From the IMG/VR virus record IMGVR_UViG_3300047476_001246: a stretch of DNA of 64,000 bases; one strand, 5' to 3'. The notes below the pieces were generated by a model that saw only the letters and a list, made by a program, of their open reading frames with translations, did not search any database and was not told the DNA's origin. Position 1 is the first letter of the stretch. Each line of letters starts with the position of its first letter. The position numbers and the translations under genes were made by a program. Of this stretch, positions 2,984-60,836 are shown piece by piece. This stretch comes from a virus.

Positions 2984-4137
2984 TATCTATACTCCAACCA
3001 AAGGTCTGCAAATTTTAATTTAAAATTTGGCCAATACGTGTCTTCTTGATTTTTATGCCATTTGTAAAGATTATCGCAATTGGTATGTGTTGGCGTGATA
3101 CTGTTTAAACTGTTGGCCATGTCCTCTAGGAATCTTTCCTGTACTGGGGAATAGTGATATTGCATGGACTTTTTAAGTTCGTCAATTGCTTTTGAAATGA
3201 ATTCTTTTGGTAGACTAGCAACACTTAAAATGTTAGGATGGTGCAATTCATTCCAACGCATCATTGGTATGTCGTTGTCGGCAAAGTATTCGTGCAGCGT
3301 CGACAACTGTAAGGCATTATAAACACAATATTGACTGGTGATTCCAATCCTGTGACCAGGACTCTGTTTGACGCTTTCTTTCAAATACTTTAGATTTTCT
3401 AGCATGGTATTCCAACTGCTACCATGTCTGACATATTCAAATTGTTGTTCTACTGTTTCAAAACTGATATCCCACATTACATTTTTCTTGGTTATTAATT
3501 TTTGAAAAATACGATTGTTTGCAAGTGGAACACTTAGATTGGTAATGACATTGATAGATACGTTTTCGTCAATTGCATCTAGTAGGTAATCATTTTCTTT
3601 TTGCAACAAAGGCTCGCCGCCCAGTAAGGCCAAATTCTTTAGCGTGCTCTTGTTTGATTCAATAAACTTTACAATATCTTCAATGGTGTTATCGTAATTC
3701 AATCGATCTAGAGGTTGCTTTTTTAACGAGGCCCATTGACTACTGGCCTCTTGATCGCAGTACACACAACTTAAATTACAGGTATTTGACCAACGTATAT
3801 CTAAATTTTGTAGTTTTGTGTCGTGTACATTGTCAATGTTGATTGTTTCGTTGTTGGCAATATCGTTGTACCACGACCGTTCACTTACTGAACTGTGTTG
3901 TTCTTGTCTATAGCAGATATCACAATTGCTGTCGTGCTTGTTGTCAACAATTGATTTTTTTATTTCGATCAGTTTGTGATCTGAGAGCAAATTGGTGATT
4001 GGGGTGGTTCGTAAATCACCAATTGATTTGGTTCCGGCACAACATGTTTTAAATGTACCACCGGTATTGATATGAATATTGGTCCAAGGGGCATAACAGA
4101 AATTAGGGCCAATTTCGTTGCTAAGTTTTATAGACAT
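2983..4137 (-). CDS. Radical SAM protein with N-terminal SPASM/twitch-like Cys cluster
   Basis: CNLSCVYC, GGEP, N-terminal C..CC..CxxC. Confidence 0.85.
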   Translation of the reverse strand: MSIKLSNEIGPNFCYAPWTNIHINTGGTFKTCCAGTKSIGDLRTTPITNLLSDHKLIEIKKSIVDNKHDSNCDICYRQEQHSSVSERSWYNDIANNETINIDNVHDTKLQNLDIRWSNTCNLSCVYCDQEASSQWASLKKQPLDRLNYDNTIEDIVKFIESNKSTLKNLALLGGEPLLQKENDYLLDAIDENVSINVITNLSVPLANNRIFQKLITKKNVMWDISFETVEQQFEYVRHGSSWNTMLENLKYLKESVKQSPGHRIGITSQYCVYNALQLSTLHEYFADNDIPMMRWNELHHPNILSVASLPKEFISKAIDELKKSMQYHYSPVQERFLEDMANSLNSITPTHTNCDNLYKWHKNQEDTYWPNFKLKFADLWLEYR

Positions 4138-47477: not shown

Positions 47478-48348
47478 TTAAATCTCCACATATTTAAGTT
47501 TAAAGTTGTCGGCTCTGGCTTCGTAGTCAATATAACCACGCGGATTACACACGATACGAGTAGTACCAATCATGTAGTCAAAGTCCTCGTGAGTATGACC
47601 GTGCGTCCACAGTTTAATTTGTCGTCGATCTAAAATCCAGTTGTCCATGTCTGAGCTGTATGCGCCATTCATAATATACTCAGTCTTGTAGCGCGGGTGA
47701 GTGCTAGCTTTGCTCGGCGCGTGATGCCCGCAAACCACAGTAGGTAGTCCCGGATGCATGGCCAGTGCTTCGTCCAAGTTACGACGGAAACGATAATGAT
47801 CCTGTACTGAATCCTGCGGCAGAAATCGGCCACCGGCAGTAGGGCCAGTATTTTTAATTTGTCTATAATCGTTCATTACTCCAAGGATATGACTCATTGT
47901 GACAGGGTCTTCTCCATTCATGTCAGTCCATAATGTACCACCAAAGAACAGCACACCATTGATAATGCGCCACTCGTTGTCTAGAATGTGGAGGTTGTGA
48001 ATATCACCGAATGTGCCTTTGATAATTCGGTATGTTTCGGCAAAGTCGCCGTGGTAGGATTCATGATTGCCGGTGATATAAATTACTTGCGGGAATCGGT
48101 CGCAGCAACGGTTAATGAAATCTACATATCGTTTTGCACGAGTACGAACGGAACTTGTAGCCATAACAATCTCTGCATTTTCATCGTATGCAAAGTCTTT
48201 AAGTTCGCTGGCAATAAGAATATCCCCACCGAGGATCAAAACATCCGCGTTTTCGTCATTGGCAAAATCTAGATCGCCAAACTCAAGGTGAAGTCATCTA
48301 AAGATCCGAGCAAATAGCTGCTCGGACCTTGTTTCCTTTCTGGCTCAT
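47478..48348 (-). CDS. Calcineurin-like metallophosphoesterase interrupted by a 10-nt insert (bypass candidate or pseudogene)
   Basis: Removing 48291-48300 joins ...ICSDL to HLEFGD...GGDI...GNHE...HH...HGHTH. Confidence 0.8.
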
Positions 48349-48381
48349 ATTATGATCCTTTAAATGTTAGTTGATAGTGCT

Positions 48382-48410
48382 ATTGTACAACAAATTGAAA
48401 TTAATGTCAA
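48382..48410 (-). promoter_or_regulatory. Sigma70-type promoter
   Basis: TTGACA-N17-TACAAT. Confidence 0.7.
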
Positions 48411-52477: not shown

Positions 52478-52567
52478 TGGCGGAAGCGGTGAGATTCGAA
52501 CTCACGGTACCTTTCGGTACGTCTGTTTTCAAGACAGGTGCAATCAGCCAGGCTCTGCCACACTTCC
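52478..52567 (-). tRNA. tRNA-Ser(TGA)
   Basis: Long variable arm, G73, CCA end. Confidence 0.92.
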
Positions 52568-52924
52568 GTATAACTTACCGTGTTCTTCTCTATGACAATT
52601 TGAGCATAAAAGAACACATTTATCTAGTTCAGCAAAAAGTTTTTCTCGCTTGAACTTTCTTAAACCTTTAGGATCTTTTTGCTTAGGATCCTTATGATGA
52701 AACTCTAATGCGCCGCGATACTTGTTATATCCGCAATGCTCGCATTTTCCGCCTTTATAGGCTAATGCCTCATCTCTTACTTGTAATCTATATTGTTCTT
52801 GCTGTATTCCAAAACAAGAATAACATTGACTTTTCATTTTGCCATAAAACTTTTTGGGATCTTGTTCTCCACAAGTTTCGCAATGATGTAATTTTTTAAC
52901 AATACCTTTTAATGGCGAGCCCAT
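52544..52924 (-). mobile_element. HNH homing endonuclease associated with tRNA-Ser
   Basis: CxxC, CEHCG, LEFHH, LCSNCH; stop lies inside the tRNA 5' end. Confidence 0.8.
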
Positions 52925-52970
52925 AAGTTTAATCTCCTTAAACTTATTTATCATTTTATTGTAAATTATA

Positions 52971-52995
52971 ATAAACCGGACTCTGCCACACTTCC
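52971..52995 (-). repeat. Orphan tRNA-Ser 5' fragment
   Basis: GGAAGTGTGGCAGAG identical to first 15 nt of tRNA-Ser(TGA). Confidence 0.8.
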
Positions 52996-52998
52996 AAA

Positions 52999-53235
52999 TT
53001 ACTTGGACCAGGTCATAACAAACAATGTTCGATCCTGATCCCACTTAAATGCTACGCCGATATTATAGAGAATGCTACAGTCATCGTAGGCCCAAGTTGC
53101 ATATCTTGCTCCTACGCACTGTTTTAACCAATCCTCTACAGTAATTAAACTTTTGACCCAATCAATTTGACAAGAATCAAAATTGGGCCACGGGATAGTT
53201 GCATGATATTGGAATTTGTGCCAATCCACTAACAT
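52999..53235 (-). CDS. Hypothetical protein
   Basis: Likely start MLVDWHKF after TAAATA. Confidence 0.55.
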   Translation of the reverse strand: MLVDWHKFQYHATIPWPNFDSCQIDWVKSLITVEDWLKQCVGARYATWAYDDCSILYNIGVAFKWDQDRTLFVMTWSK

Positions 53236-59945: not shown

Positions 59946-60836
59946 GCTAACGCTGAGATTACACGTTAGCCACAAGCACCTCTAGCATTATAGTACGCCT
60001 TGCGAGCATACCTTCTCTAGACATCCACTAAATCCTGTTATCACACAGTAATCTAGTCTGCTTGCAGCATCGCCGTTTTTATGGTCAGGCAGTAGACCAG
60101 TCGTTACGTGCTACTCTGTACCTTATTTTCCGTTGAACTTGCGGTCCATTAAGCCTTGCGAGCTACGAAACTTCTAGTACAAATTAGTGTCACCTTGCGA
60201 GCTTCACTAAACTCAATTGGCTCACGCCTTGAGTGTTAGATGCTTTTCGCACATAACCGGAGCAGTCTTTGCATTTTTGTAATGATAGTTGGATTCGAAC
60301 CAACTGCCGTCAGATTAAAAAGTCTGTCGCTCTACCGATGAGCTATATCAACCTACTACGATGTGCTGCTCCAGTTGCTGAATAAAGTTTTGCTCTACCC
60401 AATACAACACACCATGTACCTTTTGCCTGCCGGCTACTCAGTAGTCCTTCGCGATTAGTGTGACCCCGCCGTTGCCGACAGCCCCACCGACCACTTGTAC
60501 TGCACACAAGCCCTTGGCTGCGAAACCTCGGACAAATGCACTACCCTTTCTCATACCAGTTAACTGATTGGTTTTGCAGTGAAGTCAGCACCACCTGTTA
60601 CTTTCCTTGCACCCTGGTTCCCTTGCGGGCCAGTCGATACAAGTTCTTTCCACTACATCAGCTTCGCTGTTAAATCCACCCGTCTTATAAGTGAACGCTA
60701 CCTCACGGTAGTGAGCAGGCTTGTTTAAGCGGACCATTGCTGGCGCAGGCGTGTAGGACGCTGCTGCTTTGGGTCACTCACGTGACTTATCCTTAGTTAG
60801 ACGGCGAACCGTCTAGCAAGAGATTAAACTCCCTAA
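59946..60836 (-). ncRNA. Large structured ncRNA, GOLLD-like (~890 nt)
   Basis: No ORF in the ORF track, GC-richer, many GCAA-loop hairpins, embedded tRNA-like element, 3' ...GTAATCTCAG hairpin, own promoter, within a tRNA cluster. Confidence 0.68.
60281..60352 (-). ncRNA. tRNA-Lys-like element with 8-nt anticodon loop inside the large ncRNA
   Basis: Intact D and T arms; loop CTTTTTAA; no CCA. Confidence 0.7.

Follow-up and report, generated by a model that had tools for sequence, protein, structure and literature searches.

How could a phage enzyme be made from a gene in which a short, stop-containing insert splits the first catalytic motif? The question is raised by a locus in the 64,000-nucleotide stretch of viral DNA analysed here (IMG/VR record IMGVR_UViG_3300047476_001246, hereafter the window), a segment of a large phage genome that carries tail genes, a Clp ATPase and 24 called tRNAs. 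The interrupted gene, on the minus strand from 48348 to 47478, encodes a calcineurin-like metallophosphoesterase. Its body, ORF2, matches Pfam PF00149 (E 2e-7) and PHROG 1649 (E 6e-47) and carries the motifs GD, GNHE, GHHAP and HGHTH, so that the PF00149 set of DxH, GD, GNH, H and GHxH is present, with the DxH whole only once the insert has been skipped. Uninterrupted homologues begin M-K-I-A-x-x-S-D-x-H, and all 78 of those examined in IMG/VR contain S-D-L-H-L-E-F. No gap alleles were found among the top 80 IMG/VR matches; INPHARED gave no DNA match, its best proteins being only about 35% identical, and a sequence search found no solved structure for a relative. In mycobacteriophages, one metallophosphoesterase is known to act in counter-defence (PMC12287305).

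Anatomy of the interrupted gene

Read on the minus strand, the gene starts with an ATG at 48348 and runs for 16 codons ending GAT CTT; there follow TAG A TGA CTT and then CAC CTT GAG TTT. The gap between Leu16 and His17 of the DxH motif has the sequence TAGATGACTT. Its UAG is a stop in frame 0 and its UGA a stop in the resume frame; the entry and resume frames are therefore both closed within the gap, and neither readthrough nor a single +1 shift would yield the long product. Skipping 48300-48291, with the CUU at 48293-48291 as landing codon, joins 16 and 270 codons into a frame of 286 amino acids and restores S-D-L-H-L-E-F. An earlier reading made from the sequence alone had described a 10-nt insert splitting the DxH motif, with a take-off CTT followed by TAG and a matching CTT at its end, in a gene of about 290 codons that is otherwise intact, that regains CSDLHLEF on skipping and that keeps its promoter and ribosome-binding site. 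The sequence is as described, ORF2 is open, and both expression signals are present (Table 1). That reading missed two features: uninterrupted homologues lack the first seven codons of ORF1, which form an extension, and 6 nt beyond the landing codon there is another CTT (this position is CUC in the alleles L081 and L170).

Table 1. Features of the interrupted phosphoesterase locus in the window
Feature	Position	Strand	Basis
Promoter-like site, sigma-70-type, TTGACA-N17-TACAAT	48382..48410	-	11/12 consensus
Ribosome-binding site AAAGGA	48356..48361	-	invariant in 10-nt alleles
ORF1: A-rich N-terminal extension and first beta-strand ending S-D-L, 16 codons	48301..48348	-	sequence
13-bp RNA hairpin, 4-nt loop, 3' arm ending on take-off codon	48301..48330	-	folding
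Take-off codon CUU (Leu16)	48301..48303	-	CUN in 19/19 alleles
10-nt coding gap: UAG, A, UGA, CUU	48291..48300	-	sequence
Second in-frame CUU, possible overshoot landing site deleting His-Leu	48285..48287	-	sequence
ORF2: metallophosphoesterase body, 270 codons, His17 to TAA	47478..48290	-	Pfam, PHROG, motifs
Divergent free-standing GIY-YIG-like/NUMOD3 endonuclease gene, 228 aa	48483..49169	+	Atlas feature matches

Matched codons around a stop are common when considered alone, with 227 such configurations in the window, where no second gap of the same kind was found. The stem at the gap is the longest among all 227, and it ends exactly on the take-off codon. From its -10 region onward the promoter is common to the window and to L085, an allele without the nuclease gene. 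T4-type bypass has a mini Shine-Dalgarno about 6 nt 5' of landing; the alleles with a 10-nt gap have a GGA at 11-9 nt from the landing codon on its 5' side, within the stem, and the TCC-GAC alleles have no GGA.

The insert in independent assemblies

Searches with the exact insert gave a single match in JGI metagenomes and none in IMG/VR or GTDB. Truncated database proteins led to further, independent assemblies, and the identical 10 nt were found in L081, L083, L084, L085-087, L169 and L170, the alleles with the identical insert being that of the window and five others. The same 10 nt thus recur in JGI, ENA and Logan assemblies, from different samples and with diverged flanks, which refutes an assembly or sequencing error; this alternative, listed in the sequence-only reading, can be virtually dismissed. 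The same reading had proposed looking for the insert in homologues, and besides the five identical cases there are related gaps in distant ones. Two further candidates, P0187 and P0200, were rejected as gap alleles on the ground that they are contig-edge fragments.

Within this 10-nt group the downstream frames are all open, over 270 or 290 codons. Synonymous divergence between the ORF2s reaches saturation, with dN/dS of 0.04-0.11, and there is no excess of private or conserved-column changes relative to 232 uninterrupted proteins (the highest count, 5, is that of L081).

A family of gap alleles

To look beyond the identical insert, IMG/VR was scanned with patterns whose only fixed elements were S-D, a TAR stop and H-L-E-F-G; the take-off codon, the gap length, the landing codon and any structure were left free. 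Sixteen of the 68 matches were phosphoesterases, 38-52% identical to close homologues, and all 16 showed CUN, stop and CUN together with a hairpin of -19 to -33 kcal/mol. Two further alleles came from a scan specific to the family, and the 11-nt gap likewise emerged from this follow-up scanning. A scan for UGA as the first gap codon gave no phosphoesterase, and one for the leader pattern gave three matches, all unrelated. In total there are 19 distinct alleles at 32 loci, the window included (L084 and L088 are one contig), and no description of this phosphoesterase gap family was found in the literature.

The gaps measure 6 nt (seven alleles), 9 nt (five), 10 nt (six) or 11 nt (one), and therefore represent all three frame classes; only a skip from CUN to CUN restores D-L-H in every one. 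The codons for take-off and landing are CUN in all 19, in the combinations CUU/CUU (as in the window), CUU/CUC, CUU/CUA, CUC/CUC, CUC/CUA, CUG/CUG and CUA/CUA; only 23 of 75 uninterrupted alleles have CUN at the corresponding codon. The stop next to the take-off codon is UAG in 18 alleles and UAA in one. Every allele has an open downstream frame and a hairpin ending on the take-off codon, and all except one have an in-frame N-terminal extension. Take-off is preceded by 16-22 codons (9 in L189), and in 16 of 19 alleles the AUG lies 21 nt ahead of the GUC of the stem. We take this spacing to hold the hairpin clear of the initiation footprint, not to position a peptide signal, with a contribution from shared ancestry.

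The exception is a 9-nt gap allele on the minus strand of L189 at about 2989-3066 (also in L217 and L226), whose extension, shorter by one base, is out of frame. An AUG lies inside the hairpin and is overlapped by an upstream reading frame, suggesting coupled re-initiation.

Three of the 6-nt alleles (L176, L223 and L237) share one gap sequence, with proteins 63-75% identical and dN/dS of 0.16-0.21, a combination that argues for long maintenance. The gap of the window is the 9-nt form TAG TGA CTT with one A added, and the 9-nt form in turn resembles a duplication of the S-D-L codons, which would be a plausible origin for the gap. Among the 35 minus-strand reading frames of at least 150 amino acids in the window, 27 end in TAA, eight in TGA and none in TAG; UAG seems to be avoided here as an ordinary terminator.

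Other ways past the stop were weighed. The prfB shift site consists of CUU-U ahead of a stop, so that +1 frameshifting at CUU-UAG might be envisaged; 6- and 9-nt gaps are in frame; and an internal TTG start at 48239 could in principle provide the second piece of a split, two-piece enzyme. The +1 shift, however, runs into UGA two codons on. Readthrough would leave two or three extra residues between D and H and is of no use for 10- or 11-nt alleles. The TTG product would lack the first motif, ORF2 alone aligning to the Pfam profile only from position 26 on, and an AUG inside the gap opens four codons only. We consider all three of these routes very unlikely. Reassignment of the stop was also considered and rejected: code 11 leaves the long reading frames open, and the tRNAs called in the window include no suppressor.

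A hairpin ending on the take-off codon

The sequence-only reading had placed a hairpin at 48301-48330, ending on the take-off codon. Position and endpoint hold, while its 12 bp and 6-nt loop fold instead as 13 bp and 4 nt. The structure has a stability z-score of -2.9, and none of 200 shuffled sequences was as stable. The 40 nt before the take-off codon fold with -18.8 to -21.4 kcal/mol in the 10-nt alleles, as against -2.6 ± 1.7 kcal/mol (minimum -8.7) in 75 uninterrupted alleles. The span of the stem ranges from 24 to 42 nt across alleles, and the gap itself (6-11 nt) is unpaired or weakly paired, with no take-off stem-loop inside.

Pairing is preserved through sequence change. For the nine core pairs of the stem in 15 alleles, 134 of 135 cells retain pairing, double changes included, and one pair occurs as C-G, G-C and A-U; the four variable stem positions of the 10-nt group all remain paired. 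In a covariation test that ignored kinship, 141 of 150 cells were paired against a shuffle mean of 118, a value reached by none of 5000 shuffles. On the plus strand the hairpin and a T-rich run score as an intrinsic terminator (48305-48336) just before the nuclease gene, and the T-rich run is T6 in L081, L084, L085 and L169. Over a 45-nt span the sense fold is more stable than that of the opposite strand in all 10-nt alleles, but not in L170 when a longer span is taken, nor in L208. Termination on the opposite strand is a possible second role for the hairpin, and one that leaves the gap unexplained.

A further possibility is that the gap is removed from the RNA: a phage endonuclease and a ligase might excise it, or RNA polymerase might jump from one short repeat to the other at the hairpin. 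The end product would be identical, the phage has many tRNAs and structured RNAs, and a hairpin followed by UUU could pause the polymerase. The repeat, however, is only 2-3 nt long, too short for hybrid realignment by RNA polymerase; neither a group I nor a group II intron could be as short as the gap; and the gap's length and sequence vary, with no common structure inside it. What is constant is instead phased by codons: an in-frame stop adjacent to a leucine codon, and leucine codons whose first two bases are fixed and whose third is free. This points to the ribosome rather than to RNA processing, and removal at the RNA level appears improbable.

Nuclease neighbours and mobility of the cassette

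The 228-aa gene that diverges from the phosphoesterase has Atlas feature matches of 0.94-0.97 to GIY-YIG/NUMOD3 clusters and no match in Pfam, where nuclease identity stays below the thresholds, so the family assignment is a weak one. It is intact in L081 and L084, at 98% identity to the gene in the window, and nuclease-like neighbours also adjoin 9 of 13 distant alleles; that of the 6-nt allele L227 is 67% identical to the nuclease of the window. L085-087, L176, L204 and L224 keep the gap without an adjoining nuclease gene. In a protein tree the gap alleles are mosaic and interleaved with uninterrupted ones (polyphyletic), and a near-identical 5' cassette is found on very different gene bodies. 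The GIY-YIG-like gene is the probable mobiliser of this cassette. As to the suggestion in the sequence-only reading that the insert is a repair scar from this nuclease, the 19 alleles, four gap lengths and covarying hairpin speak against a one-off scar, while the nuclease itself does form part of the explanation.

Several other observations concern mobile genes at or near the locus. In L089 (662-1660 and 1650-2509) an HNH-like gene, whose C-terminal half is common with the nuclease of the window, lies beside an uninterrupted DxH allele with a different 5' end, a phosphoesterase that in this assembly is frameshifted by a deletion after about codon 50. At 1030-1075 of L085, past the stop of the upstream gene, there is a faint likeness to a native phosphoesterase start, possibly a remnant left by insertion of the cassette. 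Elsewhere in the window, an HNH endonuclease gene (52544-53044; PHROG 2255, E 3e-27) lies inside the tRNA cluster, and at 60279-60352 ARAGORN reports, as tRNA-???, a tRNA-like element whose anticodon loop is abnormal.

Mobility of this kind lends itself to another interpretation, in which the phosphoesterase is dispensable and is inactivated by the cassette, which homing carries again and again onto new, intact backgrounds. The polyphyletic, mosaic ORF2 backgrounds fit such a cycle, as do the intact nuclease in the window, L081 and L084 and the frameshifted allele at the same locus in L089. Since homing can refresh dead alleles, the dN/dS argument is weakened, and, given the interleaving and mosaicism, low dN/dS may in part date from before the cassette captured the gene. 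Against a dead gene, the completely sequenced ORF2s contain no stops or frameshifts, including those of the nuclease-less L085, L176, L204 and L224, and the lack of excess private and conserved-column changes tells the same way. The covarying hairpin, the invariant CUN landing codon, the retained ribosome-binding site and the in-frame ORF1 would all be left unexplained. In favour of bypass, the cassette also supplies its own expression signals, which mere killing of the gene would not need. A dead gene is unlikely, though a little less so than removal of the gap from RNA; and the pseudogene named as an alternative in the sequence-only reading is disfavoured by 19 alleles that restore D-L-H only by a CUN-to-CUN skip.

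Proposed mechanism and comparison with known bypass systems

The reading that we regard as probable, from comparison of sequences, is programmed, hairpin-assisted ribosomal bypass in a homing-endonuclease cassette similar to T4 gene 60/MobA, with neither a hairpin in the gap nor a long peptide signal. The translational hop suggested earlier is what we infer from 19 alleles, four gap lengths, the CUN-to-CUN skip and the covarying hairpin. A homing-endonuclease cassette would have replaced the 5' end of the phosphoesterase gene, bringing its own promoter and ribosome-binding site, a short leader peptide, the hairpin and the gap with its stops. After starting at 48348 and unwinding the hairpin, the ribosome would stall when UAG occupies the A site and peptidyl-tRNA-Leu sits on CUU, whereupon the anticodon would release. 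The exiting mRNA would refold into the hairpin and either pull the ribosome forward or block its back-sliding; the tRNA would re-pair at the CUU 10 nt on, and decoding would restart at CAC to give the 286-aa enzyme with DxH intact. With CUU in the P site the loop is about 10 nt upstream and may still be inside the ribosome, in which case the hairpin may work as a ratchet and not as a trigger. Through the gap the nuclease probably loses its target site, which would make the allele immune. The mosaicism of the gap alleles, the out-of-frame extension of L189 and the weak assignment of the nuclease count against this reading. Shared ancestry means, too, that the 19 alleles are not independent trials, and the matched codons could have begun as an S-D-L duplication.

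The closest precedent is T4 gene 60, in which the gap blocks cleavage by MobA and persists after loss or replacement of the nuclease (bioRxiv 10.1101/2022.08.31.505936; PMC7026636; PMC5009743), and for which pairing of the exiting mRNA has been proposed as the motor of bypassing (PMC5009743; bioRxiv 2024.12.09.627546). Like the T4 gap with MobA, the phosphoesterase gap travels beside nuclease-like genes, GIY-YIG-like here, with PF00149 as the target, rather than HNH in a topoisomerase large-subunit gene. In keeping with the wobble latitude reported for T4-type cassettes (bioRxiv 2022.08.31.505936), the codons at both ends of the gap vary in their third base. There are also differences: gaps are of 6-11 nt rather than about 50; the matched codons are leucine CUN rather than glycine or aspartate; no hairpin lies within the gap; and a single strong, conserved 5' hairpin includes the take-off codon, whereas that of T4 lies 9 nt upstream and differs between clades. 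The phosphoesterase extension is basic, K-G-x-K, and could have a role; the 16-22 residues made at take-off are too few for a KKYK signal at its T4 distance, or for any signal in the nascent peptide some 30 residues away from the P site.

Short gaps have other precedents. In Streptomyces phage phiHau3 the gene for terminase has, as here, a 10-nt gap, a slow A-site codon and a proposed 5' stem-loop stimulator, and bypass of its 10 nt is supported by mass spectrometry for a cassette with a UAA substitution in E. coli (PMC10732093). The 6-nt alleles (for example L196, CUG UAG CUG) resemble the synthetic 'stop-hops' of E. coli, in which nine bases specify one residue (PMC5009743), but are natural and come with a conserved hairpin. 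The byps of Magnusiomyces mitochondria are likewise short inserts skipped between matched or near-matched codons, although they use mitochondrial ribosomes, relaxed decoding and unused sense codons and are described as context-independent (PMC5009743). A more general proposition, towards which we lean only slightly on the present sequence comparisons, is that one 5' hairpin ending on a leucine codon, together with a stop, would suffice for efficient bypass of 6-11 nt in any frame, with no long peptide signal or structure in the gap.

Significance

In the literature, natural bypassing with experimental support is confined to T4 gene 60, the phiHau3 terminase and Magnusiomyces mitochondria. The phosphoesterase cassette, of about 60 nt, offers 19 natural alleles with four gap lengths as a test bed for the model in which refolding of exiting mRNA drives sliding, and it lacks the long peptide signal by which gene 60 is complicated. 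Annotation of such genes is systematically in error: they are called from internal TTG or GTG codons as truncated proteins (P0002, P0006, P0013, P0130, P0131 and P0133) or could be read as pseudogenes. If so small a hop module is indeed sufficient, the 6-nt alleles would be natural in-frame stop-hops, listed as unknown in a 2016 review (PMC5009743), and homing nucleases would use such modules to protect active-site codons without killing the target gene. Bypassing would then join introns, inteins and split genes as a means by which a homing nuclease leaves its target functional.
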